A stretch of DNA of 64,000 nucleotides from Raillietiella orientalis (Eukaryota): the NCBI GenBank assembly GCA_036172245.1, contig JAYWIR010000040.1, forward strand, positions 310,001-374,000, given 5' to 3'. A model generated the notes under the pieces. The model saw nothing but the letters and a program-made list of their open reading frames with translations. It had not been told where the DNA came from and ran no database searches. Position 1 is the first letter of the stretch, and every line of letters begins with the position of its first letter. This document shows, in pieces, positions 8,101-42,000 of this stretch. Made by a program: the position numbers and the translations under genes.

Positions 8101-8880
8101 TCGATGGCGGAGATCATCTCCGCCATCGGAAAGCTCAGAAAGAGGAAAGCACCAGGGAAAGACGGTCTGCCCGTGGAGTGCTACCAAGGCTTCGTGGCGG
8201 AGATGGCCCCCCTGGTGCATCAGCTTTGCATGCTGATCCGAGAACAAGAGCACGTCCCCAAATCGTTCCGGTCAGCTAGAGTACGTCTCCTGCCGAAAGG
8301 AGGAGACAATCGCAACGTAGGCAACTGGCGTCCCATCACAGTAGTGAATGCGGATGCGAAGTTGCTTGCCAAGCTTTGGGCTGAGCGACTGGGACGGGTG
8401 GCGGAATCCGTGGTGAGTCCGGAGCAGACATACGCTGTTCCAGGACGATCCATGGAGGCCAACCTGTTCCTCGCCAGTACATGGTGGCAGTTGCAACAAA
8501 GCGAAGACCAGGGAGGTCAGGAGAATCCTGGATTCTCCTCTGACCATGTAGGGGACGCCCTTTATGGAAGAGCCGCGCCTGGAGCCCTTGCGGTCGCAGT
8601 CGATCTGCGTAAAGCGTTCGATTTCGTCGACCAGGAACTCCTTCTGGAGCTCCTGGAACGCTTGGGATTCCCGGCCGTCTTCCGGGCTTGCCTGCGCTCC
8701 TGCTGGCGCTTCGCTCTAATAAACATCACTTTTAGCGGGCGGCACGTGTACGGCGTGCCGGTTCGGCGTGGCATAAGGCAGGGTGACAGTCTGGGCCCCT
8801 TGCTCTTCAGCATCTACTTCGAGCTGGTGCTCAGGGCATACAGGGAGACTCTGGCAACCCTGCCAAGCTCATGTCCCGGC
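5186..8880 (+). mobile_element. Tx1-like retrotransposon C (second family): 5' UTR, ORF1, APE and RT, truncated just before YADD
   Basis: ORF1 in one frame 5226-6899 with stops at 5595 and 6180 (CGNCKTFGHLKK, CPTCGAKGHTKVVC). APE WNVNG/LQETH/GDFN/SDH at 6950-7600. RT APGKDGLP, WRPITVVNADAK, DLRKAFD, GIRQGDSLGP at 8100-8880. Confidence 0.9.
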
Positions 8881-10861
8881 ATCGCCAATACAGCCGACCC
8901 CCCGCGATCGCCTCAATCTCCTGGAGGTCTGCCGCGGTGATCACGTGGATCTCCTGCAGCAGGGCCAGGTCGAACTCTCGCAAGGTGTCGGCCGTGTCTC
9001 GTCCGTTGCCGTCATCGCGCAGTTCGTTTACATTCCAACAGGCCATGCAGATCCGACGGCGACTGGCGAGCCCAGGTGTTAACCCTGGGAAAGTGGCTGT
9101 GGGGCGTCCGCCACCTTCTGGGGCGGGACGCTAGGTGGAGGACCGGGAAGTGCTGAGGGCAGCTGGCCCCTTCCTCCATTGGTGTCGGCGCCTCGGACGG
9201 ATCACCCTCAGGTGGGGTCGCACCTACCGGTTGGCCCTCCTCCATGGGGGTGGACGGCACGACGAATTCCGAGCGTGGGAGTTCCCCTCCAAGATTCACA
9301 CGCTGCTGCTGCCTTCCGGCTTCTCGCTGGTGGAGGGGAGGCGCCTCCTGGGCTTCGGGGACTTGCGTCCCGACTTCCTGGGGGTGCATCCGCGGAGTAG
9401 GATGAGCTTCCGGCCCCCAAGTCGAACTCTCCTGTGAGGACGTTTTCCACCGGATCCGGCCTTCTCACGGCCTTGCGCAAAGGATTTTCGCGCTCAGCCA
9501 GCGTGGCCGCCAGCTCCTCCGCCGTCATCGCGAACGCGGCGTCCTCGCTTTGGGCGACTTCGTCGCCCGGCTGACCCTCTGCGCAAACAGAGGGCGACTT
9601 TTCGCGCGCACCCGTCGCGGCTGGATCTTTAACAGAAGCCGTATCGCCTATGGTGGTGTCGGCGGGAACGTCAATGCGCTCCAGCGTAACCGTGCATTCT
9701 CGGAAAGTTTTTACGCGCGGCACGGATTTAGCTTTTGTTCCGGACGCCAGCTTCCCTCCTTTCTTCGGGACATGTTTGTCCTTTTTCTTTTTTTTGGCTT
9801 TGACTAGCTGCGAGCCCTCTTCTCCCTCTGCGGTTTCGGGAAGATTTTTCTCCGACGCCGCGCTTGGAGATTGGGTCATTGGCAGCTTTTCTCGGCCAAT
9901 TTCCCGGTTTTCCGATTTTTCTTTCCCCCTCGCGTTTCCCTTGCGCCTTTTTGGCGGCCGAGGGAATCGGAATGGGGCGTTTAGGGGACACACGACGGAC
10001 GTGTTCCTTCTCCCCGCACAAGTAGCACTCGATGTTTGGGCACCTCTTTCGGATGTGTCCGACCGCATCGCAGTAGCCGCAATACCGTGGCTTGCCCGCA
10101 TACCAGAGGTCTACCGGTTCTCCCGCGACCTCAAGTTTGTGGGGAAGCTTCGCACCGTCTTTTGGGGTTACACGTGCCGCGGCGAGGCCCCCGAAGTGGC
10201 GCCCGTAGCCCTCAAAGATTGTGGGCTTCGGCCACAGCGCGTGTACGTCCCCTTATTTACATAGTTCTTCTTTGACGGCAGTGCGCGTCATGCGCTTAGA
10301 TATTCCTGTCAAGTGGACCACTACCGAGTGATCCATTGACACCGAGAAGATCTTACGGCCGTCCATGATCAGCGGGGTATTTATCAGGTGATCGGCTAGG
10401 CTGATGCTCTTGCACAGCAGCTCAACGCGTTGCGCCCCGCTGAGCACGCACAGACCTTCCAGATCTTCCTCACGGATATTCGCATTTTGAAGCGCTCTGC
10501 TGAAAGAGCGCGCCGTATTACCTTCAAATAAAGGGCCTACCTTATGCACAAGCGATGGCTTGCATCCACTGGCCCGATATGCAGCTTCCTCGGCCAAGGC
10601 CTCCGCACTGGGTGCGGCGACCATTTCGCTCCAAGTCTTCGCAGGCTGCGAAGACAGTCCTGACGCTATTTCCTCCACATCTGTAGGTGGTATGGGAGGA
10701 CTCGCCCCCTTATGCCTACCTCCATTGCGGTGTCCTCTCGCAAGGCTGCCATCGGACACCGACGACCCACACTACACCTTGGAAAAAAAGGAAACGAGAA
10801 GTTCCTTTCCAGACAGTCGCTCAAGGAGCGACCAAAAAAACACGTCCACCCACAACGACAC
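8881..10861 (-). mobile_element. Tx1-like retrotransposon D (same family as C), inverted: 5' UTR, ORF1 and APE N-terminus
   Basis: ORF 10253..10759 is homologous to C ORF1 (PSLVHKVG, DHSVVVHLTG); 9208..10101 shares F...AEELAA.L; 8831..9046 reads CWNVNELRDDG...FDLALLQEIH. Confidence 0.88.
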
Positions 10862-10958
10862 AATACTATTTACCGGATTGCATCTGCTGCGCAGTTACGC
10901 AGTATAAATACACACTCCACACAACGTACATCTAGTCCTACCTTTAGTGAATTTCAAG

Positions 10959-12057
10959 ATGCCATACGCACTTTTTTTTAATTGGTGTTTTACACTCTGC
11001 AACTTCTCAGAAGATGAACTCAAGGAAATAAAAGACTGGTGCAGAAGCAACTGCTTCTTCGCGTGCGTCGGTAAATAAGTCGCAAAAATAGGGACGCCAC
11101 ATCTTCAGGGATATATTCAACTCAAAGAAACTAGGACTCTACCTCGGCTCAAACGCAAACCATTTCAAAAATCTCATTTGGAAAAAGCTAGAGGCAGTCC
11201 ACAGAGCAACATACGGTACTGCACCAAAGACAAACAAGCATGGACATACGGAAGAATAAATGACAGCAACGAACCTACAGACTACCAAGACCTAGTAAGC
11301 CCTTCAACCATAAAATACAAACTAACCATTTCAATCGTAGATTCTTCAATTAATAGAAGACGGAGCAGATGAACATTTCATCTTGAAGAACCATACCAAA
11401 TTGTATAGCAAAAACATCAACTTCGTGAAAGAATGCTTCAGATTAACACGAAGCCGAGCTCACCCTAACCCTTTAGCCAACCTACAATTGAAGGCATGGC
11501 AAATGGATATACTTCAAATTATACGACACAAACCAGACCTTCGAAAAATTCACTGGTTTTACGACCCGATAGGAGGTGTTGGCAAAACAACCATGCCCAA
11601 ATTCCTATACCTTAAAAAGGCAGCCATTTACATGCACTCACGTAAAAAGGCAGACGCCGCCCACATTTACAACGGCGAAAGGATCATCGTCGTCGACCTG
11701 ACGAGAGATAAGCAAGAACTAGTCCAATATGGCTTCATCGAGACTCTCAAAAATGGGATCATCTTCGATAGCAAATATCAAGGAAGCATAAAGTATTTTC
11801 AACCTCCACATATTCTGGTTTTCTCTAACTGGGAACCAAACTATGAAAAGATGAGTTCAGACAGATGGATAGTACGGAACATATCCACAACCAACAGTAC
11901 AGCTCTGGTTCCTTGGATGATGGATGATGGTGGTGTCATTCTCCCTTGGGCTTGCACTTCAAGCCCTAGTACAGCGCAAGCCCGCGACTCGCCAGATTCC
12001 TCATCATCCATAGTGTCACCCCTTTCCCCCTTTTTTGATGTAATAAACAAAACCTAA
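10959..12057 (+). pseudogene. rep: CRESS-virus Rep, copy 1; two exons (10959-11294, 11341-12057), about 350 aa, one in-frame stop at 11076
   Basis: RCR motifs WCFTL, PHLQG, YCTK. Walker A GGVGKT, Walker B IIVVDL, motif C VFSN, Arg finger SSDRW. The GTAAG...ACTAAC...TAG intron restores the frame. Confidence 0.93.
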
Positions 12058-12083
12058 CTTTTAGCTTTTTGTATTGCATTCAT

Positions 12084-12630
12084 TTAATATAAACCAACAT
12101 CTCTCAAGTGCTTAAACTCTATGTAGTATCTTCTCGTTATTCTGAATATGGGAAATCCTTTACTCAAAGTTCCGTTCTTTGGACAGATACCTGACTGACA
12201 ACCCAACTTCAAATCATCAGGAATATCCACACCTGACATATGCTTCAACACATGCATCCTGTGGAAATGCACACGACACAAAGTTTCTCCATCCAAAGTA
12301 GAGCCTTGCCAACTATCTATCCAAGGGAAACGCCTATATCTATACAGATTTCCTTTTTCCTCATAACGCGTTTCACGGATATAACCTTTAGAATAGAACC
12401 TCAATCCACGAACGCCAAAGTAACGATCAAAGCAACCAGAAGTTTCAGCGTGACCGGCTATCCGCTCGTCTACCTTACTATAAGGCATTCCAGTTAAGCT
12501 TTCAAAAAAATTGGCCCTGGTTAGGACTTTGATACAACATGTTCCGATAAGACACTTTCATTCCGAACTCTTCACCCATGTTGCCAATTGTTAAACCCAA
12601 AGACAAGGGCTCTACTTTCACAGACAGAGT
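12084..12630 (-). pseudogene. cap: CRESS-virus capsid, C-terminal half, copy 1
   Basis: ORF 12084..12488 plus upstream KVEPLSLGLTIGNM..MKVSYRNMLYQS align with the full-length Arg-rich protein at 24490-25421; convergent with rep. Confidence 0.8.
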
Positions 12631-12646
12631 TTTGCATGTCAGCGAA

Positions 12647-12681
12647 ATGCAATCTGGGTAATACTATTTACCAGATTGCAT
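12647..12681 (-). promoter_or_regulatory. Intact rolling-circle origin stem-loop with nonanucleotide TAGTATTAC (copy 2)
   Basis: Perfect 11-bp stem atgcaatctgg (12647-12657) / ccagattgcat (12671-12681) with a 13-nt loop; GTAATACTA at 12658-12666 reads TAGTATTAC on the minus strand. TATAAATA at 12701. Confidence 0.95.
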
Positions 12682-12761
12682 CTTCTGCGCAGTTCCCAAC
12701 TATAAATACCAACAAGCGGACAACCAAAGCCAAGTCTTACTTACTCAGAATTACCAGAAAG

Positions 12762-13471
12762 ATGCCATACGCACTCTTCTTTAATTGGTGTTTCACACTC
12801 CGCAATTTTACAGAAGATGACTAACAAGAAATCAAAGCATTTTGCCGTGCGAACTGTTTCTTCGCATGCATTGGAAGAGAAGTGGCAAAAACAGGCACGC
12901 CACATCTCCAAGGATATTTCCAACTCAAGGAACCGAGAACTATGCCAGGATTAAAACGCAAGACTTTTCAAAAAAGCCATCTTGAAAAAGCCAGAGGCAG
13001 TCCACAGAGCAGCTTGAGGTACTGCACTAAGGAAGACAAACAAGCATGGACGTTCGGTCGCATCCACGACACCAACGAACCGACGGACTACCAAGACCTG
13101 GTAAGCCAATCCTTTTCACCACTATATCTAATCATTATCTCCATTAGATATTACAACTAATAGAAGATGGAGCGCACGAGCATTTCATATTGAAAAATCA
13201 TACCAAATTTTATTATAAAAATATTAATTTTATAAAGAAATGCTTCAGAATTACCAGAAACAGAGCACACCCAAACCCACTAGCCAAACTCCAACTTAGA
13301 AGCTGGCAAATGGATGTACTGAAATTAATATGACACAGCCCTGACAACCGAAAAATCCACTAGTTCTTCGACCCAATCGGAGGGATCGGCAAAACAACAA
13401 TGGCCAAATATCTCTTCCTTAAAAAGGGAGCTATATATATGCACAGCTGCAAATAGGCAGATGCTGCACAC
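12762..13471 (+). pseudogene. rep: CRESS-virus Rep, copy 2; 3'-truncated after Walker A; intron 13101-13147
   Basis: MPYALFFNWCFTL, PHLQGY, YCTK, GGIGKT. Several stops (e.g. 13331, 13361) and frameshifts. Confidence 0.92.
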
Positions 13472-15635
13472 TTCCCGGTCGAACAGTGGAGGCCAACCTG
13501 TTCCTCGCCAGCACCTTTTGGCAGTTGCAACAACGCGAGGCTCAGCTAGGTCGGGAGAGTCCTGGACTCTCTACTGACCAAGGGGAGGGAAGAATAAGAG
13601 AAGCAGCGCTGGGAGCCCTTGCGGTCGCAGTCGATTTGCATAAAGCTTTCGATTGCGTCGACCAGGAATCCCTGGAGCTACTGGAACGCACGGGATTTCC
13701 GGCCGTCTTCCTGGCCTAACTGCGCTCCTGCTGGCGCTTCGCGTTTATCAACATTAATTTCAGCAGCCAGCACGTGTACGGCGTGCCGGTTAGTCGCGGC
13801 ATCCGGCAGGGAAACAGCTTCAGCCCCCTACTCTTCAGCATCTACTCTGAGTTGATGTTGAGGGCATACAGGGAGACTTTGACAACCCTGCCGAGCTCAT
13901 ATCCCGGCACGCCTGCCGTGTCGGCCTATGCCTACGACCTTATGCTCCTGCATCGCGGGTCCACCCCGGCATTGGCGCTCGAAGATTGCTTCGAGTTGCT
14001 TCGCCGTGGGAGGGGCCTCGAGATGAACTCGACGAAGTCGTCGTTGATACATACCGAAACGTCGCGGGCAGGACGGTCGGACTGAATCCGATTGCGGATC
14101 CCCACGGGTGAGTACATCAAGTACCTTGGCGTTCCGTTGGGGGACTTCTCATTGCAGAAGCCTGTTCCGACCGTCTCCAAAAGGTGGAGTTCGCGATCGG
14201 TCCATTCCGGGACGGATATTTTTATTTGCAGGAACGGGCCGCGGTGTGGAATGCCTTTGCAGCCTCCCTCCTTCGCCCCCTACTTCTTGTGTGCCCCACC
14301 CCTCCCCAAATTCGGAAAAGGACAAGAGGCCTCATTAGAAAAGCCCTCTGGGGCAACCGGAGGCCCCGCGTCCGGCTTAAAGACTTGTGCTCTCCACGCA
14401 GTGACGGTGGATTTGGTCTCCTGACCTTGAAGCGCGTGAAGCGTCAGCTCCAAATTAGCAAACATGCCCTTGTGGCAAAATATTGGACAGCGCCATGGTG
14501 TGCGCCCACACGACTCCTCGCCTACAGGGCAACCGGCTGCAACGGATTGAACTCAATCCTAGTAGCCAACGACTGTAGACTGAACATTGCGGATTTCCGC
14601 TACGGGACTTGGTGGCCCTAGTAAGGAGCAGCCGGTGGATCTCCTGCAGCCCCGGAAACTTGTCTACCTGGCTCCAGGAGTCCGTTTCCGCGTGGGCAAA
14701 AATCAACGGCTCCAGTGGTGTGGAATTCTCCAGCTTCCGTCGAGGCAGCAACGCTGGCCAGCTCCTGCGGGAGATTGTTTCCAAGCCACAAAAGCTTTTG
14801 TGGGCCTCGTTCACCCCCCTTGCCCCCGTGCTGCCCTCCCTTATAGAAGCCAGGGACAGCCAAGAGGAGGCATCGTATGAAGTGTCCTGCCTCATCAGAG
14901 GTAGGAAAAAACTGATGAAAGCGTGGACGTCCCGGGAACTAGCGGACGCTACAACCCCGAGTGTCCCGCCAAATGGAATTGTGCGCTGGGGCGAGCTGCT
15001 CGGCATGCCTTTGGAGGAGAAGTGGCCCCCGGCGTATTGGGACAGTGGCACTCTAGCTTTGGATTGGCAGGAGACGGCGCTGCTTGTGCTCCATTGGGTC
15101 TTTTAAGCAGAGCACGCCTGTCTCACTGGACATTGGAGAGATTGGATGCCCATTGTGCAGAGTGCGAGAAAAGGGAGACCTTCCCCGTTTAATAATCGAG
15201 TGTTGCCCTCCGCTTCATGTGGGATCGACTCTCGTCGGCCCTAAACTAACTGGTGGGCGACCCTAAAAATATTTTTCGTCGCCTCCTGATGCGGAACTCC
15301 CTGCCAGGTGCCGCGTGTGTTGCAATTCTCTGCTGCATACGGAGAATATTGGACAAGTGGAACGCATGAATAACAGGCCGCAGTAGTCGGAATGCCATCC
15401 ACTGGGCAATCTCCATGGATAGCTTCCCGTTTGAGCCGGCTAAGTAACATTCTGCCAGCACTTGTTTCTATGCAGAACCAGATGCAGTGGCCCCCGCACG
15501 GCTTACTGTGATCCTTTCCCTTCCTTCCCCCCCTAAATATTGTCCTCCAAGCTTTTTCTTTTTTTTTGTTTTTTTCTTTTCCCGTCCCCTTCGCCAGTAG
15601 AGAGGACCTTACCGGCATACTGGTCGGAAAGCTCA
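13472..15635 (+). mobile_element. Tx1-like retrotransposon E (family C), 5'-truncated RT, C-terminus and 3' UTR
   Basis: PGRTVEANLFLAST, DLHKAFD, GIRQGNSFSP, YAYDL (degenerate YADD), KYLGVP, GGFGL, CAEC..RET. T-rich UTR after the stop at about 15511. Confidence 0.88.
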
Positions 15636-15831
15636 AGTGCATAAAACAGTATGAACAATGTGTTCTGATTGGAACACAAGTACAGACGTTAGGACTATAT
15701 TATAAAATAGATAATACCTAGAGTATTGCTCCAATTTTAATGCACGCAACAAATTTGCTAAGCTAATTGCCTGCTCCCTATACGTATGCATCCAGGAACA
15801 ATTCACATTATCTTCATCTGAAGATGAACTA
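15636..15831 (-). pseudogene. cap: CRESS-virus capsid middle fragment (continuation of the copy 3 cap)
   Basis: DEDNVNCSWMHTY..LLRALKLEQYSRYY aligns with DGDHVNCSWMFTY..LLKKLDLAEFAKRY in the copy 4 cap. Confidence 0.78.
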
Positions 15832-18800
15832 TGCCAAGGGCGCCGCAAACGAGGCACGTGAAGACTGCGGGCCTTGTGTTGAACTTCCGGACTCGTGGGA
15901 TGAAGAGGACGACCTCTCCAGAGCGGCTGCCAGTCCCGCGACGACTCCCGCACGAGCTGGTAGCTCCGCTAGTGCCCCGCCACCCGAAGAAACCTCAACG
16001 CAAGCTGGCTCCCTGCTGGATGAAGAATGTGTGGTTGTACCCGATGCTTCAAGCCCGATAGCCGTGCTATCGCCGACGTCGGTGGGATTAGACCCCGTCT
16101 CCATCAAGGATGAGCCACCTGCGCCACCTCAACCTGTGGAGCGCGCACTCGACTACCACAAGCTGAGCCCGGAACTCGAAGAGTTTGTGTATCGTAGTGC
16201 AAGCCCCCCTATAGTGGAAAGCGTAGGAGTTCGCTAACTGTGTGGCTCCAGCCACTCAACCCTCACAGTGGCGTCACCATCGCAAATTGGGTTAGACATG
16301 TTAGGCCAGCTCTCTCCGGAGGAAACAATCACAGTGGTTGTCCCCTGTTCTCCACCCTCGCCCCCCACCGTCCACCCTGCATACGTCCGCTTACTGGAGA
16401 AAGGAGTCGCGAAGGGAAAGGGGCTGCGCCGGAGAAGCCTCCATCGGGAAAAAACAGGAACCAACGACGGCGGGAAGAAACTCTCGTTCGAAGACCCCGT
16501 AGTAAGTCCTAATTCTAAGCAAACAAAATCGCAACGAGAAGGCCGTGCTCGGCCGATAACACTCGACCCCGCACCCTTGGTGCCGCGAACGTCCGATTGC
16601 GTAAACTCCACTCTAACGCAAGACGCCGTACTGATAGTGCATTACCCTGCGCCAAATTGTCTAGCCTGCCCGCTACCGAGGTGCAGATGGAGCACCTCGA
16701 CACACCAAACCAAAAGCACGGTTGGATCACTGAAGCGCCACATTAGGACGTCCCACTGGATCCCTGTACAAGACGCGCACCTGGTGTGCAGAAAATGCGA
16801 CGTGCAAATCCCTAACCCAGTTTGGCGCCATCGATGTGCGCCGAGAATCACTCCGATCGTGCCATCTGCCCCACTTCTATGTCCGGAACGGAACTGTGGG
16901 CAAAGCTTCTACAATAAGAAAGCCTTGGCGAACCACACCCGCTGACACGACGCCATCAACAGGACCTCGGAGAGAACATACACGCGCGGGCTTCGGGTCC
17001 AGCAAACGGCTGAGAACGCGTGTCGAATCGATCCGCGGCCGAGCTCCCCTGAGTTATACGCAGGGGAAACTGTTCCTCCGATATATCCCGATCAGGCGAG
17101 CGAATGGCGCACGGTCCCCCACTCACAGCTGCTTAGCAGCCTTCAAGGTGCGAATGCCGGTGGGAAATTTACAGAACTGATCTGTCAGATATACTCCAGG
17201 AACACCACCCGGATTGCCACCAAAGAGGGGCTCTCAGCACCCATTGCCCTCGAAAGAGGGGTCAAGCAAGGTTGCCCCTGTCGGGCTTGCTGTTCAATAT
17301 CACACTAGAGCCTCTCTGTGTGTGTATCAAGAGCCAGGTGCCCAAAGCCAATGTATTGGCGTACGCGGATAACTTAGTCATCCTAACAAAGGATGCAGAG
17401 GAGCTTTAAAAAGCACTCGACTGTGCCAGCGCAATGGCCTCTCGACTTGGGCTGTCGATCAACGCCAGGAAGTGTGCATCGTTCCAATACGACCCGGGTA
17501 CTCCAAGAACTGTTGGACGCCAGCGATTCCGAGTGTCGGGTGAGCTCTTGCCCGCCCTCACGGACGTTGGCATCTACAGCTACTTGGGGAAACCAGTCGG
17601 CTTCGATGCCATCCACAGCGATGCGCTTGAAGCCGACATCCGGTCCAGCATTGTCACAATTTTGGAGGCACCACTAGCTCCGTGGCAAACGCTGGACGCT
17701 CTAAAAACGTTTATTTTCCCATCCTTCGTCCACCGCATGCGGATGGGCTCTAAGCCCAGGAGCTTCTGGAGTGGTTTGGATGAGGTGATTAAAAAAGCAT
17801 TGAAGGAAGACATCCTTCCGTTGACCCGGGCCTCTTCCAAAGAGTACCTCTACGGGTCTCAGAGATATGGTGGTCTAGGGTTGATGATCCTTGCCGAGGA
17901 GGCCGACATCATGGCCGTTGATTCAGCTTTTAAAATGCTGACATGCCCTGACCTGGCCATAAGAGAGATGGCTTGGGCCTCTCTCAATGAAACCGTCCGG
18001 AGGAAAGTGCGCCAGCAACCGTCTGACGCCTTGATATCTGGCTATATCAGCGGAGACATCGACCCACCCTTCCATCATCAGTCGGGAGATCTCACCGACT
18101 ATTGGTCGAGAGCTCGCGAAGCCTCGAAGAAGCTTGACCTACAGTGGTCCATCCGAGCAAACCAAGTCTCCATCAAACTATCTAACAGGACACTCCGACA
18201 GAATGATCGGAAAATAATAGCCCGGTCCATTCGGGGCCTAAAGAGGCTCCAGAGAAGCAACGTGTTGAGAAGCAAGCCGGACCACGGCCGTATCATGGAT
18301 TGCGTGGCCCTTCACCCAGCTTCCATGGCCTTTTTACATAGGCCCGAGCTCATTCGACACAGCAATTGGAAGTTTATCCATAGAGCTCGCCTTAATCAAA
18401 TGTTCCTTAACGGTAATCGGAAGCGACCAGGCTTCCACGAGGCCCGTAGGCACTGTCCGTATCCGAAGGAAACATTATCCCACGTGCTATGTCATTGCAC
18501 CAAGCATCTTGGAACGTCGATCACAGCTAGGCATAATGCCGTCCTAGGCATGCTGGAGCATTCTGCCCGACCGAAATGGGGCCACTTCTCGGTCGATAGG
18601 ACAGACCTATCCATCGATAGCAGCCTGCGACCTGATATCGTCGCATCAGATGGACAACACATGATCATCGTGGACGTGTGCATCCCCTTCGAGAACCGGA
18701 AGCAGGCGATGGATGCAGCGAGAACACATAAGATCAGCAAATATACCGACATCCGCAGGAAGTACGAAGAACAGGGCTACAACGTCAAAGTTGAGGCCTT

Positions 18801-19494
18801 TGTGATCGGATCGTTAGGCAGTTCGCACCCGAAGAACGACTCGGTCCTAAGCTACCTGGGTCTGAGCAGCCACGAAATAAAGGCGATTCGCCCTAAGCTC
18901 GTGTGCTCTGTGATCCGGGCAGCCAGGAATATCTACGCCGAACATGTCTCATCTGAGTCAGCCGAGCGTAGTATAGCCCCGACCGTACCATGGTGCCGTG
19001 CGGCTTTTCAAGACCTGATCCAGTTATAAAAAACAGCCTGTAAGACTGAGTCCTCGAAAAGCAAAAGTCGACTGCTTAGGATCAAGAAGACCCTTTACCT
19101 ACCCTTGTGCCATGTGCCTCGAGTCCGCACCGTGCGAGAAATAAAAGGCAAATATCGCCTGGGAGAATCGCGCGGTCGGACTTCGTACCCTTCTGTCCCA
19201 CAAGCGAAAGCTCAGGAACTGCTCGCGATCACACGATCGGCAAGAGCAACGGAAACACCTCCCTTTTTTGTAAATCTCGGCCACGTAGGAATAAAGGCAA
19301 GTTCTTGCCCAGTCGAACTACGTGGCCGAGACTTCAAGACATATGTCTTTTTCCCCTCAGACAAGATCAGAGCTACGCTGGTCCTTTGTGTACTCTCAGT
19401 CACTGTACAGAACGAATTGTGCGAGCATCGTGCCCGTTGTACTCAATTCTTTGTAAATCAGGGTTACAATAAAAGTTACTTATATAAAGTTAAA
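15832..19494 (+). mobile_element. RLE-type (NeSL/Utopia-like, R2 superclade) non-LTR retrotransposon, internally deleted
   Basis: N-terminal zinc fingers (CPLPRC..LKRHIRTSH, CRKC..HRC, CPERNCGQSF..LANH). RT remnant GVKQGCP..YADNL at 17250-17400. ORF 17434..19029 carries YLGKP, GGLGL, WKFIHRARLN, ETLSHVLCHC, RHN, RPDIV, IVDVCIPFE, K..KY. AATAAA at about 19468. Confidence 0.88.
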
Positions 19495-19746
19495 TATAGT
19501 CCTTTCTGACGCAAAATGCACAGCTCCACCAGCTTCCACACGCTCAACTAACACACGCAAGGAACGACCTACTCTCCAACGAGGGTTTTTAATTAATTTG
19601 ACATTACGACGACGCCTATTCCAACGATGACGATGCTTAAAGGTACCATAACGCGAGCACAATCTGGTCAACCGTGGACGCTTTAATATTCTCGAACCAG
19701 ACACGCCTTTCCTTTTCTGAGCAGCAGACCGACGTGCTGTTGCCAT
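19495..19746 (-). pseudogene. cap: CRESS-virus capsid N-terminus (Arg-rich arm), copy 3
   Basis: MATARRSAAQKRKGV..YGTFKHRHRWNRRRR..NPRWRVGRSLRV, homologous to the copy 4 N-terminus; divergent from origin and rep. Confidence 0.85.
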
Positions 19747-19984
19747 TCGGCTACTAGATAGCCTACTGAAGATTTTTCTTAATCCCCCTCCCTTTCATAC
19801 TCCAGCTGGTGGCCCACGTCTAACCGACTTTCAAAGCCTTTCACGAGGTCCGGTTTCACCAGACACCCACTTCTGGAAATCTTATCGCTTTTCCGCGTTT
19901 TTAAGTCTTCCACAACCGCGGACAATAGCCAGACACTAAAAATAAATTTACTTGCATAATTTTCCACGGTGTCGGATGATTACT

Positions 19985-20053
19985 GCGTAATCTGAGTAAT
20001 ACAGACCAGATTGCACTCAGCAAAAAATGCTGCGCAGTTAGTCAGTATATAAA
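19985..20053. promoter_or_regulatory. Degenerate origin stem-loop (minus-strand nonamer CTGTATTAC) and rep promoter, copy 3
   Basis: Arms gcgtaatctg (19985-19994) / cagattgcac (20007-20016) with 2 mismatches, GTAATACAG at 19996-20004, ctgcgcag at 20030, TATATAAA at 20046. Confidence 0.8.
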
Positions 20054-20117
20054 CCACCTACAGCATCCGGACCGCAGTCTCTTCCAGTGAATTACCTACA
20101 GTGAATTAATCTCCAAA

Positions 20118-21175
20118 ATGACTTCACCATGCACTACACTTCAAATGGTGCCTCACCCTATGCAAATACACTGAGGAGGACTTCAAGACCATAAAGCACT
20201 TGTACCGCTCCAACTGCTCCTTCGCCTGCATCGGAAGGGAAACCGCAGACAGTGGAGCCCCTCACCTACAGGACTACATGGAGTTCAAAGAACCAAGAAC
20301 CATGCCGGGATTACGCCACAAACCTTTTCATAAGACACCCTTAGAAAAAGCCAAAGGCCCTCCACAGAGCAACATAAGGTAATGCACGAAGCAGGATACA
20401 GATGTATGGACTTTCGGGGCCATCAACGAACAGCCAGAAGCAAAATCTTATCAAGAACAAGTAAGTTTACCTCGAACATAACTACTACTCTACTAACTCC
20501 TTTCTAGATCCTACAACTTATAGAAAGTGGAGCAGATGAGCTCTACATCCTCAAGCATCACACCCAATTTTATTCAAAAAATATAAACTTTACCAAAGAG
20601 TGCTTCCGATTCTCCAGAACACGTAAACACACCAACCCCCTAGCCGGACTCCAACTCAAACAATGGCAGATGCAAATTATAAATCTCATCTGACACCAGC
20701 CCCATAAAAGAAAAATCTACTGATACTTCCACAAGGTTGGAAACACTGGCAAAACGACGATGGCCAAGTTCCTCTTTCTCAAAAAAGACGCCATATATAT
20801 GCACAGCTGCAAAAAAGCTGATGCCGCTCACATATATAATGGTGAGCGTATAATAGTATTCGATTTCACAAAAGACAACATGGAGCACATACAGTACGGC
20901 TTCAGTGAACCCCTAAAAAATGGAATCATCTTTGATTCCAAATATCAAGGAAGTATCAAATACTTCCGAAATCCCCATATTACAGCATTCGCCAACTGGG
21001 AGCCAGATTACAGCAAGCTCTCTAGAGATAGGTGGATTGTTCATAACATCTCCGCTAGTCTCAGCAAGACCAACTGGCAAGTAGGAGAGGAAGGAGACAT
21101 CCTCCCATGGTCTCTATCTTCAAGCTCTAGTCCAGATAGAGACCCTGATTCGCCTGCCTTCTCCCAACAAACTTT
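20118..21175 (+). pseudogene. rep: CRESS-virus Rep, copy 3; near full length, decayed; intron 20461-20507
   Basis: WCLTL, PHLQD, *CTK, GNTGKT, IIVFDF, AFAN, SRDRW; GTAAGT..TACTAAC..TAG intron. Confidence 0.92.
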
Positions 21176-21189
21176 GAGTAACGGAATAG

Positions 21190-21607
21190 GATATTCCGTA
21201 CTTCGTCCTGCAGATCCAGACGGTTATTGTCTTGCTTCGCCATTCTTCGCTTGTTTACACCATCACAGAATTCCAGATGATTGGAAATCCTCAAGAACAG
21301 TGCTTATCCCAAAACCAGGATCATCCGACCTCCTAAACATCTCGCAATTCCAACCTATTTCAATTTCCAATACGATAAAGTTTTTTCAAAAATCGTCGCT
21401 TGTCGATTGCGATCGTGGATTATCAGAAATGGCATATTAGGTCCCCACCAAAAAAGTTTTATCCCATTCGACGGTGCTCGAACAAAACTTTATCCTCGCT
21501 TCGTCCATCGAGCATTCAAGAGTTCATCATAAAGATTTAGCAATTGTATGGATTGATATAAAAGATGTGTTCATATCTATTCCGCATAGCTTAATACTAA
21601 ATTCTCT
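21190..21607 (+). mobile_element. Short RT fragment of an RLE-clade (R2/NeSL-like) retrotransposon
   Basis: DPDG, IPDDWKSSRTVLIPK, FQPISISNT, HQKSFIPFDG, LAIVWIDIKDVFISIPH across frames. Confidence 0.75.
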
Positions 21608-22830: not shown

Positions 22831-22844
22831 GCCACTACAACACC

Positions 22845-23910
22845 GGACCTGCCGAGACGCCGGGTCGCAGACAAGCGTGACTCCTCGGCAGTCAAAATGG
22901 ATGGGGGGAAAAACAAAAAGTAAAAATAAAGAAAACCAAAAAAAAACATACTTTCAAGGATTAGGAAGGGTTCACTGTTCATTGGGAGGACGGAGCATCC
23001 TTTGAAGGATGCCCTCGAGGTCCTTCAGCTCCTGTCCCAGCTGACGTCATCCCGCCACTCTCTCTATAAAGCGAACAGCATAATGGATGACATCCATGTC
23101 GCTTGCATCAACTTAGTCGTGGGCATCACTCCAGACCGTCACCATCCCTCGGATGCAGCAGTGCTGCCGGGGCTCCAGCTAGTCACAGGGCATCCTGAAC
23201 GAGGAGAAGCCGAAAAACGTCTCTGGGCTGACTGCCCACCGGGATCCGTAGCGAGGAACCAAGACGCTCCCAGAGAGGTCGAAGGGCAGCAAAATCAACA
23301 ATAAGGTGGGAAAGGGTTCCATTCCGCTCCACGCACCTGATGCAGTGAAGATTCACTCGACCCCGCGTCCAGTGATGGCGGCGTGCGTTGCAGGGTAGAC
23401 CCCAATGCAACAGGAGAAGCGCCGAGTCCTGCCACTTCAGGGGCAAGGATCCTCGAACCGTTTGAAACCGGTGGCCACTTCAGGTCATCCATCGGGATGC
23501 CGAGCAGCTCGCCCTATCTCAGTAATCCTCGCGGGACGACACTTCGGGTCATGGCGTCGGCCAACTGTCCCATGTCCAACCGCTCATCTTCTCTCTGCGG
23601 CAGGAGAATTGCCACCTAGGCATGCGGCTGCTGGGGAGCGCTCTCCACGGGAAGGGCATCGCCGTAGCTAGGGGGTCGTCTCTGCCCATGTGCTCCTCGC
23701 GGGACACTGCGGTATCTTCCGCAGAGTGCAGCGAGAGTTGGCGCCGCGTTGCAGGCAGTTCCACATCTCGTGGTTCCTCTCATTTAGCTTCGCCCACGTG
23801 CCAGTAGTCTCCTCCAGCCATGTGGTGGAGTTGGCCGGACTGCAGACCATCCAGCCGTTCTCCTTAGTTATGATGGCTATGCTTCCAAGAAGGCCGCATC
23901 TGCAGATCTG
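22845..23910 (-). mobile_element. Tx1-like retrotransposon G (family C): ORF2 C-terminus and 3' UTR
   Basis: PLKWQDSALLLLHWGLPCNAR..CIRC..TLSHLIVD; T-rich UTR on the minus strand at 22900-22970. Confidence 0.85.
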
Positions 23911-24002
23911 TCGAAAACCCAACGCTCGACAGCCCCTGCAGGAGACAATCAAGAAGCCGCGGAAGTTTCAGTGGGCTTCCTTGACCCCCTCTGCCAACCC
24001 CC

Positions 24003-24490
24003 TATAACCCCGTTGGTGGAACGGGGAAAACAATCATGGCGAAATTCCTTTATCCGAAAAAGGGTGCCATTTACATGCACTCATGCAGGAAAGCAGACGC
24101 CGCCCATATATACAACGGAGAACGTATCATCGTAGTTGTCTTCACCAGAGACACACAAGAGACTGTCCAGTATGGCTTCATCGAAACTCTCAAAAATGGA
24201 ATCATATTCGATTCCAAATACCAAGCTTCCATAAAATACTTTCAAACGCACACATCATCGTTTTCTGCAACTGAGAACCAAACTACGACAAAATGAGCAA
24301 CGACAGATGGACAGTCAGGAATATTTCCAAAAATGATGCCAACAGACTCACTTCTTGGATGATGGATGAAGACGGTGCCATTCTCCCTTGGGATTGCACT
24401 TCAAGCCCTAGTACAGCGTAAGCCCGCGACTCGCCTGAGTCGTATCCTTCCACATTGTCACCTCCCTCCTTTTTTTTGATGAAATAAACA
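24003..24490 (+). pseudogene. rep: CRESS-virus Rep helicase half, copy 4
   Basis: YNPVGGTGKT..HSCRKADAAHIYNGERII..LKNGIIFDSKY; 3' end closely matches copy 1. Confidence 0.9.
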
Positions 24491-25421
24491 CTTATCTCAC
24501 ATATCTCATTTTTTATTTGTATAAGCCTGTCTATTAGGTGTTTGAATACAACATAGTACTTGTGGGTTACTCTGTATATCGGAAACCCGTTTGTCATTCG
24601 CCCGTTCTTTGGACGAATTCCTGCTTGGCAACGTTCCTTCAACTCGTCTGGGATATCTACACCAGACATATGTTTCATGATATGCACACGGTTGAACCAA
24701 ACATTCCCGTCTGTTTCATAATCCAGCGTATTCCCATCACTACACTCTATCCAAGGACATCGCCACGATCCAACACAACACCGTCTACCGACACTCTCTT
24801 CGTCAAGTATGCTCCTCAAACCACGTACACCAAAATAACGAGCAAAACAACCAGACGTCTCTTCGTGCCCCCCCCTATCACAGCTTCCACATGATCATAA
24901 GGTTTTCCATACATTGATGTGAAATGCTCGCCCTGAGGCGCAGATTGATACAACATATTCCTGTATGACACTTTCATGCTAAACTGTTCCGCCATATTCC
25001 CTGTTGTCAAACCCAAAGACATGGGCTCCACCTTTGTCGCGCAACCCTTTATCTTCACATATCTATAGCGCTTTGCAAATTCTGCTAGATCTAACTTTTT
25101 TAACAAAGCACGTATTCGAACATAAAATTCCAAATATGTGAACATCCAACTACAATTCACATGGTCGCCGTCTGCTACACGTAGCGAAGAATAATTAGAT
25201 GCTCCCTGCGTCATATCCCTCACAACTACTCGCAAACAACGACCTACACGCCAATTAGGATTTCTCTATATCCTAGGTCGATGGCGACGCAAATTCCAAC
25301 GGCGCCTCCTTTTGAACGTGCTATATCCTCTAGGACGACGCGATAAACGACGCCGCTTCACGCCATACGACGATCCAACACGTTTCCTCTTACGCGAGTG
25401 AACCGCACGAGGTGTTGCCAT
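24490..25421 (-). pseudogene. cap: CRESS-virus capsid, full length (about 300 aa), one stop and frameshifts, copy 4
   Basis: ATG at 25421 gives MATPRAVHSRKRKRV..FKRRRRWNLRR; continues as ORFs 24816..25235 and 24283..24819; C-terminus YYVVFKHL matches copy 1 YYIEFKHL. Confidence 0.85.
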
Positions 25422-26289
25422 TCCGCTGCTTGACAGCGTACTTTGCCAACGTGCTGTCTTCCTTCAAGAACAATAGGAGCAGCAACTAGCGAGCATTCTG
25501 GGCAGTGCCCTACCTCGTCCGAGGCAGGAGAAAACCGCTGAAGGCATGGACGACTCCGGAGTTAACGGACGCCGCTACCCCGAGCGTCCCATCTAACGGA
25601 CTTGTGCGCTCGGGAGAGCTGCTCGGCATACATCCAGAAAAGGTGAAGTGGCCCCCAGAGTGCAGGGATAGTCAAACCTTGACCCTGGAATGACAGGAGA
25701 CGGCGCTGCTAGTGTTCCATTGGGGACTCCTTTGCAAAGCACGCCTCTTCCATTGGACATCAGGGACGGTGCATGCCAATTGTGCAGGGTGCGGGAACAT
25801 GAGACCTTCCCCCACCTTATCATAGAGTGTCGCCTTCCGACTCATTAGGGATCGACTGTCGGCGATCTTGAAAATTACCGGGAGCGACCCGAAGGACATT
25901 TTCCGTTGCTTCCAGATGCAGGACGCCTGTCAGCAGCCGCGTGCGGCAGTTCTCTGCGTGGGATCCTGGCAAAATGGATTGCGTCCAAGAGAGGACATAA
26001 CAGCCGGAACGCCAACCACTGGAAGGCTCTCAACATTGAGAAAGCTTCCCGATGCTCTCGGCTAACATCACTACGTCCGCAAATTGTGTGCATCCTGAAC
26101 AGGAGGCAGAGAACCACTCCGAGCGAACAGTGATCCCTTCCAGCCCTCCCTTCCCCAAAAACATTTCCCTCCTTCGGTAGCGGCGCGTCCAGATAGGCAG
26201 AATCACGTGTTCTGCCAGCACTAATTCAACAAAACGAGACCTTTTTATAAAACCTTAATTAAAAAATTTCATAAATAACCCGGCATATT

Positions 26290-39003: not shown

Positions 39004-42000
39004 TCAAACAAAAAACTGGAAGAAACGCGAATGGCTCACGTTTCCTGTGTCACACTGGGAACCAGTCTGCATACACTTCTTATCACAGGAAAAAAATCGC
39101 TTCCTTTTAAATGTCCTTCTAATCCATGTTGTGCAATGGGGGTCGGCAAAAACACAAAACTTCAGCAAATAAAACACAATACAAAATACGAAGCTCATCA
39201 GGAAAAAAAGGGAAATGCAATGAGGCACTGCAAGAAAGCACATACAAAGGGAATCTAACTTGCTGCGGGATTCCGGGAAAACTGCTCCTCTGAGAGAATG
39301 CTTGGAAATGGCAGCCCCCAAAGTCCAGTGGACAACTTTGCCTCCGTCCACCGTATTTGGAGTCGAAATGAGATGATCATAAGTAAAAGGCAACTTTATG
39401 CCTTGGTGCAGGAAAGTCTGCAACCAGGCAGACTTAAAGCACTGATAACGGAAACGATCCTGATCGGCATGAGGGTACAAATTGGCAGCATAACGTGAAG
39501 AGAGCTCCTTCCATTCTGTTCCGCAAAATCTTTGGGCCGTCTCGCGGAACTGCTTATAAGCATATGCTCCTTCGAGACCAAAAACATCATACATCGAGTA
39601 CCAGATTTCCGAAAATCCATAAAAAGTCATTTCTTCGAAACTAATGGCGGGGAGCTCTTGGACATTGAGGGTGCACTCGTGGGGATCACACGTGATAGAG
39701 GGGTCACGAAAATAAAGTAATTCGTGGGTGAGATTTTGGCACTCTTCCCAAGATCCAGTGCCGATGAAATTGACGGGCAACTGATAACTAGGAATACTGA
39801 CTAGATGAGAGATTTTTTTCAATTGCTTGTACCCAAAGGTAACGTTCTCACGCATGTTCTTTGGGTGGCAAGGGTCACCAACAATGAAACTTTCGTTCCT
39901 GTCCCTTATGGATCCAAAGTAGATTAAAAAATGGGCATGGAATTTGAAACGTACTTGTTTTGCCGGAGATGGCGCAAAAGGAGCTGTAAGAAATAATGCT
40001 CTAGTTTTTCGTTGGCTCCAAAACCAAGGAAAGTATCTACGTATACTTTATACCGATGCCTGCTCTCTGGATTCTTGGGAAGCAAGCATATTTCCATTGG
40101 CGTCAGATCTTCATTCATCATCTTCGGGGGTACTTCGAAAGCAATTTGAACAGAAGCACCACCCATATCAATGATGCCGACTGTATCACTGTTGACTGAT
40201 GAACGAGACTTCTTGTTTGAGAATTTGCCTGGAACAATAAGTACCACCAATGCAGCAAAGTAGTTAATGAAAACAAAAACTCCCATCTTTAGAACTGAGT
40301 TCTTGGGGTACAACTGGCTTCCACAAAACCGAGTGCGTTAAACTGTAGTAAAGCTCTTCGCATTTTAAACTTGCAATTTTTGAAATACCATAATAAAAAA
40401 AAAGAAACTTTGCAACCAATGACTGGATGTGATGGATCATTTTTTGACTGTAGAATAAGGACATAGATTACAATCGCGTAATAGCGTTCCAGTTCTTCCA
40501 TGAAAGTAACGATTCGACTTGCTGTAATATTGGATATGATGACACAATTTTGAATTATTATTTTTTGCTGCAGTTACCCAGATTACATTTAATCTGGATT
40601 GTTGACCTTTGAAGTGCAACATTCATTTAGGTTAAAATACAAATATTGAAGTGTAATCTGGATAACTGCAACAAAAATTAAATATTCTCATTAAAATACA
40701 AATATTTCACTTTAAAAGTTTCAATAACTTCAAAAGTATTTGAAGCTTTATATTGTATCCTCAGTGCTTTCAATCCTTTATGGAAAAGTGTACTAAAAAA
40801 TAATCGATTAATGTCCAGAAACATAATTGTATACTATTAATATCCCATTCAAAGACCTCAAGTGGACATACTTGTTACAATATAATGTCAAAAACATATG
40901 ATCAGGGAACATGAATTAATCATTAATGAATTTAACTTATGGTGGTAATTTTGACCTAACCCCAAAAGCTATCACCATAAAACAATAAGCAGTAACATTG
41001 TTTGGAATGCAAAATTAAAAATTCATGTAAAAGTAAAATTAAGTAAATGCAAAATTACAATTAGATTAATAATAACTGAAAGGTATGTATCAGATCGGAT
41101 ACAGCACAAATTTATGTATCTGATTTTGAAAGAAGAAATAGCTCGTTTTATTGTTTTGCTCAAAAATAAAGTAAAAAGTGCATCTAAACAAAACAAACCC
41201 ACTAATGAAGACATGTTAAAAGTAAACAATCAGAAATAAGCTGAAGTTTTAGAAAACATTTGAATTAATAAATTCTAAGAAACAAAAACATGTTTTTGTA
41301 CTATCATTTGTTCCTACACAAATATGCTGTTTATTTATGGCAGGGGAAGCTCCAAACAGAACTCAAGTTGGACGAATTAGATTTCAGCAAAGGTTTATTG
41401 CAAACATAACAGATAAGAGAACTAAAAGACTGAAGTGAATTTCTTGACCAAGATTCATGCATCAAAGTAAACTGCATACATATTTTGGAATAAAATAACA
41501 TTCATGCATGAATGAAAATAAAACAGCATTCTCAAGACATTGCATCAGCAGCAGCTTAACTTAAATTAAATTTCTGTAGTAATTTCTACCTGAGGAGTTC
41601 GTACATTCTGTGAAATTATGACATGGGAATAATAATGGTAATACAGTTTACATTTTATTGATGCACCTAGTACCTTCAAACCTTACAAAAGTAATTCTTT
41701 GTTTACTGACAATAATGGCAATCAAATGTTACCATTATTGTCAGTATTACCCAATGTTTGCTTTCTTATATTAGAATTTTAACCTGCTTTTTTTTATTAG
41801 GAAGACTTCGATATTCAAAAATGTCATTCATTTAACTTAATTATCTGCTTACTCACAAATAAATTACATGATTATGCAAATAAACATACATTTCAAGGAT
41901 CATGCATTTCAGCTTCTACATAGCTATCACATTAAAACATATAAATGAATGCAACAATCATTTATATCCCTGATACAAGTAGCTTTCATAAAAAAAAAAA

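Follow-up and report, generated by a model that had tools for sequence, protein, structure and literature searches.

The route by which CRESS-DNA viruses of the circovirus kind enter animal germ lines is unsettled, and reviews have proposed the end joining of viral DNA (PMC3205384). The locus described here raises this question in a particular form. In a 64,000-nucleotide stretch of the Raillietiella orientalis genome, analysed as a whole and hereafter called the window, a decayed 1.44-kb piece of a cyclovirus-like CRESS virus (viral copy 4, 23999 to 25440 or 25442) lies inside a fragment of a non-LTR retrotransposon (H), and it has to be asked whether this piece came there as RNA or as DNA. 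The features concerned are collected in Table 1.

Table 1. Positions in the window of viral copy 4, its host element and the features compared with them.
Feature	Position	Strand	Remarks
Element E, uninterrupted reference	13468..15640	+	3' limit approximate; RVT_1 match 13720-14082; RT and ORF2 homology
Predicted capsid core promoter, viral copy 3	19765..19799	-	Motif scan; TATGAAAG 19799-19792; TTCAGT with A(+1) at 19767
Element M, different family	22842..23909	-	Abuts H head-to-head; 87-92% identical to 48140-47075
H, left part (C-terminal ORF2 region, E-like non-LTR retrotransposon)	23899..23998	+	5'-truncated at about 23899-23912
Left duplication copy CTCTGCCAAC	23989..23998
CCC(C)	23999..24002		Aligns with neither viral copies 1-3 (Walker-A region read) nor E
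Rep C-terminal half, decayed	24003..24485	+	Walker A YNPVGGTGKT... to C-terminus; at least one frameshift near 24250-24365
Convergent polyadenylation hexamers	24483..24517		AATAAA + at 24483-24488; AATAAA - at 24512-24517
Capsid-like gene	24520..25421	-	Arginine-rich N-terminus; ATG 25421-25419; in-frame stop 25268-25266; frameshift further on
5-bp hairpin CGCTG-CTTGA-CAGCG	25424..25438		In predicted capsid 5' leader
Right duplication copy CTTTGCCAAC	25441..25450		First two bases readable as viral too
H, right part	25441..26220	+	Runs into 3' region; exact 3' end not fixed

Viral copy 4 carries the helicase half of a Rep gene on the plus strand and a complete capsid-like gene on the minus strand. 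With the Rep helicase ORF of copy 1 as tblastn query, residues 74-203 were aligned at 24003-24365 (58%) and residues 157-232 at 24251-24478 in another frame, and the fragment gives a weak match to the Pfam family RNA_helicase (E 0.022). The Walker A motif GxGKT was found in all viral copies, the Pfam match of the helicase being below the cut-off, and the HUH endonuclease domain is known from copies 2 and 3, whose Rep N-terminal domains match Viral_Rep (PF02407) with E values of 3.8e-13 and 1.4e-8, respectively. A stem of at least 9 bp (z -3.6) carries the nonanucleotide TAGTATTAC in its loop (12658-12666, minus strand). Judged by these Rep domains and this origin stem-loop, the insert is derived from a CRESS-DNA virus of circovirus/cyclovirus type. 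Its capsid-like gene shares 52-54% amino-acid identity with the capsid-like ORF of copy 1; since no relative of the capsid-like ORF was found in Pfam or among 1.84 billion representatives, and no usable match in the Atlas, it owes its name to its position, its strand and the composition of its N-terminus. No Rep relative was retrieved by the Rep helicase ORF in a word-indexed protein search, by the Rep ORF and a three-row Rep alignment in IMG/VR, by the same alignment in metagenome contigs or by Rep among PDB sequences.

The organisation resembles that of cycloviruses (Circoviridae) by the ambisense Rep and cap genes, the stem-loop with the nonanucleotide on the capsid-sense strand, the Viral_Rep matches of copies 2 and 3 and a short putative Rep intron, which is retained in copies 1-3 and belongs to a region that copy 4 does not have. 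In cycloviruses the cap gene is on the virion strand and a Rep intron is often present; we know of no capsid-sense intron. The searches returned no Rep or cap relatives, and the helicase matches Pfam weakly. Cyclovirus-derived elements have been reported in mites and in an ant (PMC6069186).

The neighbouring viral copies look DNA-derived. Copies 1 and 2 form a tandem array of greater than unit length that starts exactly at the Rep nick site, which is a signature of a DNA route. The putative Rep intron kept in copies 1-3 points to DNA as well, as does the extent of copy 3, which takes in the origin and the two predicted promoters. An integration of copy 4 mediated by Rep was considered and rejected, neither of its ends being at or near the nonanucleotide: the seven matches to TAGTATTAC with at most one mismatch in the window all fall outside 23999-25442, as expected from the initial annotation, which had described the insert as lacking an origin. 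The idea that copies 2 and 4 are reciprocal products of one ancestral composite was also dropped, the structures at the two loci being different.

The initial annotation had placed copy 4 inside a retrotransposon, and this is borne out by both flanks. The left flank (23899-23995) aligns with E at 14727-14824 (67/98 identical, score 34, against a mean of 9.1, an sd of 1.3 and a maximum of 17 in 200 shuffles) and the right flank (25443-25724) with E at 14820-15098 (204/283), the right part reaching 73.5% over 25504-25957 (E 14881-15333). The two flanks are therefore collinear on E, overlapping there by five bases (14820-14824), and the repeat that borders the insert is present once in the uninterrupted element, whose empty site is at about 14815-14833 (CCCCCCTTGCCCCCGTGCTG). 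Translated separately, they read in one frame as ...WASLTPSAN and FANVLSSF..., against WASFTPLAPVLPSL in E, so that removal of the insert restores the ORF2 reading, as had been claimed; the translation of the left part gives ...KKPRKFQWASLTPSAN, against ...SKPQKLLWASFTPLAP in E. The comparison relies on a single reference element at about 70% identity. Had the flanks come from different subfamilies, a possibility raised with the initial claim, they would not be expected to resemble E equally; identity is 68.4% on the left and 68.9% over the first 120 nt on the right, and neither flank aligns with the other family (M and M') across the same stretch, so that they do not look like different subfamilies. 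The exact 22-nt right-flank pattern, used as a probe for other copies of H, had no occurrence in metagenome contigs.

H itself covers only the region downstream of the reverse transcriptase, and its 5' end, about 90-100 bp upstream of the insert, stands head-to-head with M. The reverse transcriptase of E is 73% identical to that of element B, which also has an Exo_endo_phos match; through E and B, H is assigned as a fragment of a non-LTR retrotransposon with an APE endonuclease and a reverse transcriptase. APE-type endonuclease and RVT_1 matches are present in several neighbouring element copies, so that retrotransposon machinery is plentiful nearby, a point in favour of the RNA route proposed below. 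M and M' are the sole local family with a 3' end that can be fixed, and it ends without a poly(A) tail, the 3' flanks of the two copies having no motif in common. The boundaries of E, M' and the other resident elements are too eroded or nested for their duplications, or a length typical of the family, to be fixed. At two junctions, 13468 and about 21160-21270, viral Rep-sense sequence lies directly upstream of 5'-truncated plus-strand retroelements. Repeats are rearranged here into a dense mosaic, which includes an N gap (4954-5047), and the insert, like the sequence on either side of it, is old and diverged.

A target-site duplication of 10 bp had been proposed around the insert. The two 10-mers are indeed found at the positions given in Table 1 and match at 9/10 bases; the length has to be stated as 8-10 bp, because the CT at 25441-25442 with which the right copy starts also continues the homology with viral copy 3 and these 2 nt are thus common to the repeat and the virus. 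At a fixed register, a match of at least 9/10 occurs by chance at 625 of 8,936,642 positions (7e-5), and at the offset of 1452 such matches occur at 2 of 62,539 positions, one of them being this pair. The concern that TGCCAAC might be native viral sequence was not confirmed, for in copy 3 it is not viral at that end; TTGCCA does occur at the capsid start codon, 22 nt into the insert. Two other resemblances were set aside. The sequence TTTGCCAAC is the reverse complement of Walker-A coding bases of copy 1 (11578-11586), which was judged a coincidence as it is in the wrong place in copy 4 and has the wrong polarity for priming, and the GTTG start shared by the duplication and the 3' flank of M was dropped, M' having no GTTG and only two such 3' ends being available in the window.

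The ends of the insert are of unequal character. At the left, the CCC(C) is possibly non-templated filler, and a 7-bp hairpin just inside this end (24008-24026) was given no weight, its fold energy not exceeding that of shuffles (z -0.5). No run of six or more A or T was found at either end and no poly(A) lies beside the duplication, in agreement with the initial annotation. The two AATAAA of Table 1 are the only AATAAA or ATTAAA within the insert, so that the left end, which would be the 3' end of a capsid-sense RNA and shows no recognisable signal, is about 490 nt beyond the sole capsid-sense AATAAA. At the right, the viral homology of copy 4 ends at 25442: on the minus strand, ungapped, copies 3 and 4 match at 26/33 bases inward from this position and at 1/10 just outside.

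This right boundary coincides with the capsid transcription start predicted by promoter motifs. In copy 3, which is an independent copy, the TATA-like box TATGAAAG stands at -32 and the predicted +1 is 21 nt upstream of the capsid ATG (19746-19744); base 25442 corresponds to the A(+1) of the initiator-like TTCAGT. The initial annotation had noted that the insert starts about 19 nt upstream of the cap ATG, which is the exact distance from the ATG to 25440, and had called for the start of cap transcription to be mapped; a predicted +1 does fall on the matching base, by motif scan only, in one diverged copy (64% identical) and with a TATA-like box having one mismatch. The two boundary bases being common to the host repeat, the viral end could also be 25440, that is +3. 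Over 128,000 strand-positions the composite promoter motif has 27 distinct occurrences (2.1e-4), three of them in copy 3; one of the three is the expected Rep promoter (TATATAAA at -30), whose +1 at 20076 precedes the Rep ATG by 43 nt. By an arithmetic estimate, a random breakpoint in a genome of about 2.1 kb would fall within 2 nt of the predicted +1 in about 0.2% of cases, or perhaps 1-3% if the several landmarks examined are allowed for. In the predicted leader, the hairpin of copy 4 has a counterpart in copy 3 (GGCTA-CTAGA-TAGCC, 19749-19763), with two of five stem pairs changed on both sides and pairing kept.

The sequence itself shows the insertion, its duplication, the collinear flanks and the agreement of one end with a promoter-predicted +1; an RNA template, a retrotransposon enzyme and an order of nicks are what we infer. 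The duplication of 8-10 bp, with flanks collinear on E, is the signature of staggered nicks, and the end at the predicted +1 favours a capsid-sense transcript over a single-stranded DNA fragment, which has no reason to stop there. The reading that we favour, tentatively and at somewhat less than an even chance, is the target-primed reverse transcription of a read-through capsid-sense viral RNA by non-LTR retrotransposon enzymes acting in trans. The plus strand of an old copy of H would have been nicked after ...TGCCAAC, and DNA synthesis would have started from the 3'-OH with a read-through capsid transcript lacking poly(A) as its template, a few untemplated C having perhaps been added first. 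Synthesis would then have reached the 5' end of the RNA at the predicted +1, 21 nt before the capsid ATG, a second nick in the other strand, 8-10 nt away, would have produced the flanking duplication, and the insert would later have decayed. On this reading the RNA must have been read-through and unpolyadenylated, because the sole capsid-sense AATAAA is well inside the left end. As the 3' end of M and M' is without poly(A), priming by such an enzyme does not have to take place on poly(A). R2-type enzymes are able to initiate at RNA ends of other kinds and to insert bases without a template, and two bases shared at the junction on the RNA 5' side, with 3-4 possible filler bases at the priming side, are within the range for such insertions. 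Retrotransposons without poly(A) tails usually copy their own RNA only, which counts against this route, as do the absence of poly(A), the internal AATAAA on both strands and the DNA-route signature of the neighbouring array. Of the earlier suggestion that a cap-sense transcript or ssDNA was inserted by retrotransposon machinery, the transcript is the part that gains, whereas the machinery stays putative in view of the missing poly(A), the read-through of about 490 nt and the DNA-route signatures in other copies. Copy 4 also keeps the native ambisense Rep/cap arrangement, a further point against RNA that is read in the literature as a sign of genomic-DNA origin (PMC3205384).

Repair at a staggered break, offered as a fallback by the initial annotation, stays a serious rival and the main one, though we regard it as less likely than the reading by RNA. 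A sub-genomic linear piece of the double-stranded replicative form would have been end-joined into a break whose overhangs of 8-10 nt were filled in; the break could have come from a retrotransposon endonuclease in an aborted attempt or from another nuclease. The ambisense genes, the two internal AATAAA and the lack of poly(A) would all follow, one junction offers a 2-nt microhomology and the other 3-4 bases that may be filler, and DNA-route integration is seen next door in the array starting at the Rep nick site and in copy 3 with its origin and both promoters. However, end joining usually leaves small deletions and blunt or microhomology joints, not a flanking duplication of 8-10 bp such as is present here, and the viral end at the predicted capsid +1 would be left to a coincidence of the frequency estimated above. 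End joining has been proposed in reviews for circovirus and parvovirus elements (PMC3205384) and for hepadnaviruses (PMC2946954), and, as far as these sources describe it, the capture of AAV vectors, hepadnaviral linear DNA and organelle DNA shares with copy 4 a sub-genomic fragment without origin, short microhomology and possible filler. Conversely, no obvious target-site duplications were found at the flanks of endogenous viral elements surveyed in A. vulgare (PMC4231630).

Two further rivals involve a switch of templates. It is improbable that the insert arose by a template switch during the retrotransposition of H itself, the reverse transcriptase jumping, in second (plus) strand synthesis of a new, 5'-truncated copy, to a capsid-sense viral RNA, copying it to its 5' end and returning to the H cDNA 8-10 nt behind, so that the repeat would be a re-priming slip. 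Reverse transcriptases such as those of R2 and L1 jump at template ends, and such a switch would account for an insert that stops at the predicted 5' terminus of the RNA, the missing poly(A), the 2-nt overlap at the return junction and the short distance of about 90-100 bp to the truncated 5' end of H. The viral sequence upstream of the retroelements at 13468 and about 21160-21270 points the same way, but the arrival of retroelements in viral DNA would explain these junctions just as well. Two jumps are required, the first from internal to internal, where a simple insertion needs fewer steps, and the template-switch chimeras known to us sit at the 5' end of the element and never return to the first template. 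A switch of a host polymerase, of MMBIR/FoSTeS type, is decidedly improbable: the nascent plus strand at a fork stalled in H would have copied 1.44 kb of the abundant capsid-sense virion ssDNA circle and returned 8-10 nt behind. As TAGTATTAC is on the minus strand, the virion strand is capsid-sense and so of the polarity required of a template for the plus strand; copying from a circle would call for neither ends nor an origin nor poly(A), and the two bases shared at the return junction fit. Against it, the switch-back at the predicted transcription start is unexplained, the departure junction is without microhomology and inserts of such size are uncommon by that route. That no insertion took place, the repeat being a chance match or the locus an assembly chimera, is hardly credible. 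The mosaic of repeats, the N gap and the single reference at about 70% identity would allow it, but the chance per register is very low, the flanks on both sides follow E in a single frame, overlapping by 5 bases, and an assembler is unlikely to misjoin sequences so old and diverged.

The favoured route by RNA is best compared with the bornavirus- and filovirus-like elements of mammals, for which LINE-mediated endogenisation of viral mRNA is described (PMC2987831, PMC3205384). As here, a short target-site duplication is present, one end is at a transcript boundary and the machinery acts in trans; those elements, however, come from RNA viruses, are tailed by poly(A) at the 3' end and extend no further than the mRNA, whereas copy 4 has a DNA-genome origin and no poly(A), and extends about 490 nt past AATAAA into antisense Rep. 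Endogenous circoviral elements, embedded in LINE-1 in carnivores and forming tandem genomes in cyprinids, likewise associate CRESS sequence with LINE-type elements in animal genomes and have the tandem copy in common with our locus (PMC6372831). In the accounts consulted the carnivore fusion to LINE-1 is an association drawn from repeat annotation, and neither a junction nor a duplication is given; most vertebrate elements consist of rep only, whereas the junctions are base-resolved here and a whole capsid-like gene is present.

As a CRESS insert, copy 4 thus combines junctions resolved to the base with a clean duplication, and one of its ends is on the predicted start of capsid transcription; within the same 15 kb the neighbouring array starting at the Rep nick site provides a contrasting case of the DNA route. 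A search of the literature in full text returned no paper describing either signature. With confidence falling a little short of even, we propose that a cyclovirus-like virus with a DNA genome was endogenised here through RNA, by a read-through capsid-sense transcript without poly(A). A non-LTR retrotransposon would have reverse-transcribed it as far as its exact start, beginning at a 3' end that was internal or trimmed, and would have inserted the copy into another retrotransposon with a target-site duplication of 8-10 bp, whereas the sister copies at the locus would have arrived as DNA, by way of rolling circles cut at the Rep nick site. Copy 4 would then give a concrete and testable case of the retrotransposon-mediated entry of a DNA virus.

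The insertion of copy 4, a decayed CRESS virus piece of about 1.44 kb, into the 5'-truncated non-LTR retrotransposon fragment H is taken here to be real, as is the duplication flanking it. The flanking 10-mers lie where the initial annotation had placed them and are identical at nine of ten positions, a match whose empirical rate at fixed register in the window is 7e-5. Against E, an uninterrupted relative of H (13468 to about 15640, plus strand) and, at about 70% identity, the sole reference element over the insertion site, the left flank (23899-23995) aligns to 14727-14824 (67/98; score 34, highest shuffle score 17) and the right flank (25443-25724) to 14820-15098 (204/283). The two alignments share 5 bases on E, in the same frame and at equal identity, and E reads TTGCC...GTGCTG at the empty site. 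Both flanks are thus of one retrotransposon kind and do not appear to belong to different subfamilies, and the family of M' and the minus-strand element M (22842-23909; 87-92% identical to 47075-48140) gave no alignment to either flank over the insertion-site stretch. Nor is TGCCAAC native viral sequence at the right end, where copy 3, the only other viral copy covering this region, reads CTGAAGATT. The duplication measures 8-10 bp, depending on whether the CT at 25441-25442 is assigned to host or virus. H is itself a fragment whose 5' end, at about 23899-23912, abuts M, of a different family, so the insert lies 90-100 bp from the truncated start of its host element.

Viral sequence in copy 4 runs from about 24003 to 25440/2, preceded by CCC(C) (23999-24002), which matches nothing and may be filler. 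On the plus strand Rep is present from the Walker-A motif through the C-terminus, and on the minus strand lies the capsid-like gene (ATG 25421-25419); both convergent AATAAA signals are included as well (24483, plus; 24512-24517, minus). Both genes are dead, Rep through at least one frameshift and the capsid-like gene through an in-frame stop (25268-25266) and a frameshift.

The window is animal DNA, with host gene fragments in its AT-rich half (see table), for which eukaryotic ENTPD families are the nearest Atlas clusters. Its first 30 kb are GC-rich and consist of a mosaic of pieces from non-LTR retrotransposons (zinc-knuckle ORF1, APE-type endonuclease, RVT_1), among which four copies of a small circular Rep-encoding virus are interspersed; an N gap occupies 4954-5047. 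Non-LTR elements are normally 5'-truncated, and the 3' cut-off of two facing retroelements (8882-10800) is unusual and points to rearrangement. The open 539-codon frame, with a CCHC-like motif (HCPYPKETLSHVLCHC) and a PD…D/E-x-K-like stretch, resembles the C-terminal portion of a non-LTR element carrying a restriction-like endonuclease.

Coordinates of viral, retroelement and host features in the window
Feature	Position	Strand	Remarks
Viral copy 1	10862-12640
Viral copy 2	12640-13468
Viral copy 3	about 19498-21160
Putative Rep intron (GT...AG, 46-47 nt)	11295-11340, 13101-13147, 20461-20507		Copies 1-3, between endonuclease and helicase halves; sequence reading
Capsid-like fragment, very divergent	15696-15926	-	32% amino-acid identity to copy 4; just past E 3' end
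Retroelement B	5532-8937	+	3' side cut off; faces related minus-strand copy
B-related retroelement	10516-8882	-	3' side cut off; faces B
Open 539-codon frame	17410-19026	+	Pfam: no match
GDA1/CD39 (ENTPD-like) exons	39007-40337	-	Pfam match; host gene fragment, AT-rich half
WD40 beta-propeller piece	56837-57382	-	Pfam match; host gene fragment, AT-rich half

The viral copies share 64-74% DNA identity. The Rep N-domain matches Pfam Viral_Rep (E 3.8e-13 and 1.4e-8), the helicase half has a Walker-A motif, and the opposite strand carries an arginine-rich ORF, named capsid-like on its position and composition. The capsid-sense (minus) strand carries TAGTATTAC in the loop of the origin stem-loop, at 12658-12666. 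We take this layout (ambisense genes, intron, origin) to be cyclovirus-like, following the ICTV description. No relatives of Rep were found in word-indexed proteins, IMG/VR, metagenome contigs or PDB, and the capsid-like ORF gave no usable Atlas match and no relative among 1.84 billion representatives. Copies 3 and 4 each have a 5-bp hairpin (19749-19763 and 25424-25438) that ends 3 nt before the capsid ATG. In two of its five stem pairs both partners differ between the copies and pairing is retained (GGCTA/TAGCC vs CGCTG/CAGCG); it may be a conserved capsid-leader element.

Copies 1-3 keep the putative Rep intron and therefore do not derive from spliced mRNA. Copies 1 and 2 are homologous from 10862 onward. 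This base corresponds to 12660, which falls exactly on the T7/A8 junction of TAGTATTAC (minus strand), where Rep nicks the nonanucleotide; copy 1 is devoid of the left arm of the origin stem. The array has the appearance of a rolling-circle intermediate that entered the chromosome as DNA; its two units are only 74% identical (815 nt). At their junction (12505-12672) the capsid-like gene runs, from about residue 73, directly into the origin stem-loop, and about 450 nt present in copy 3 are absent (capsid N-terminus, leader, part of the intergenic region); either the molecule was sub-genomic and defective, or the stretch was deleted later. Copy 2 stops within the Rep helicase (…KADAAH) at 13466-13470, where E begins from the RT motif …PGR(S/T)(M/V)EANLFLAS. 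This virus/5'-truncated-retroelement junction has the same orientation as that of copy 3 with a plus-strand retroelement at about 21160-21270, where a single 238-codon open frame (20724-21437) leads from Rep helicase into reverse-transcriptase-like sequence (IPDDWKSSRTVLIPKPG).

The window was scanned for a TATA-like consensus (TATAWAAR, allowing one mismatch, with its first base between -34 and -28) combined with an initiator (BBCABW); of 128,000 strand-positions, 27 different ones qualify as +1. Three of them fall in copy 3, which spans the origin and both predicted promoters, and one of the three lies inside Rep. The predicted Rep-side start has TATATAAA at -30 and +1 at 20076, with the Rep ATG following 43 nt downstream. 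The capsid start, a motif prediction from this one diverged copy that keeps the capsid upstream region, has TATGAAAG at -32, TTCAGT and +1 at 19767 (minus), 21 nt upstream of the ATG. In an ungapped comparison, copies 3 and 4 match at 26/33 bases inward from this +1 and at 1/10 outside, so the viral end of copy 4 coincides with the predicted first base of capsid mRNA, 25442, or lies two bases inside it if CT is assigned to the flanking duplication. Random breakage of a genome of roughly 2.1 kb would put an end within 2 nt of the predicted +1 about 0.2% of the time.

The initial annotation had proposed either a capsid-sense transcript or ssDNA as the inserted molecule. An RNA template explains the coincidence with the predicted start, which an ssDNA or dsDNA fragment leaves unexplained, and the duplication argues for staggered nicks, as made by retrotransposon endonucleases. 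Our leading, still tentative reading is target-primed reverse transcription of capsid-sense RNA. Capture of viral DNA at a staggered break is rather unlikely but a serious competitor, as copies 1-3 look DNA-derived and no poly(A) is present at the left end of copy 4. That end lies about 490 nt beyond the capsid-sense AATAAA, in antisense Rep, so an RNA template would be a read-through, unpolyadenylated one. M and M', the sole resident family with a fixable 3' end, end without a poly(A) tail, which makes priming without poly(A) conceivable; retrotransposons of this type normally copy only their own RNA. By our estimate, duplication and start-site coincidence jointly outweigh the strong DNA-route prior and the missing poly(A), by a margin that is not large. 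Template switching during H's own retrotransposition would account for the RNA 5' end and for the closeness of the insert to the 5' end of H, and is improbable; replicative template switching on virion ssDNA is slightly more so, and artefact or chance very improbable.

In work on viral fossils, target-site duplications are taken as a retrotransposition signature (PMC2987831, PMC4231630, PMC3205384); the A. vulgare EVE survey reports no obvious ones at its EVE flanks (PMC4231630). Endogenisation of RNA viruses by LINEs, leaving duplications and poly(A), is established in mammals (PMC2987831, PMC3205384); unlike these inserts, copy 4 carries no poly(A). Related elements are described as embedded in and amplified with LINE-1 in carnivores (circoviral) and as tandem circoviral genomes in cyprinid fish (PMC6372831), and as cyclovirus-derived in mites and an ant (PMC6069186). 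Full-text literature searches brought up no description of a CRESS insert whose target-site duplication is resolved or whose end lies at a transcription start. Lacking the defining poly(A), copy 4 does not qualify as a processed insert of the poly(A) type, and it may nonetheless function in the same way.
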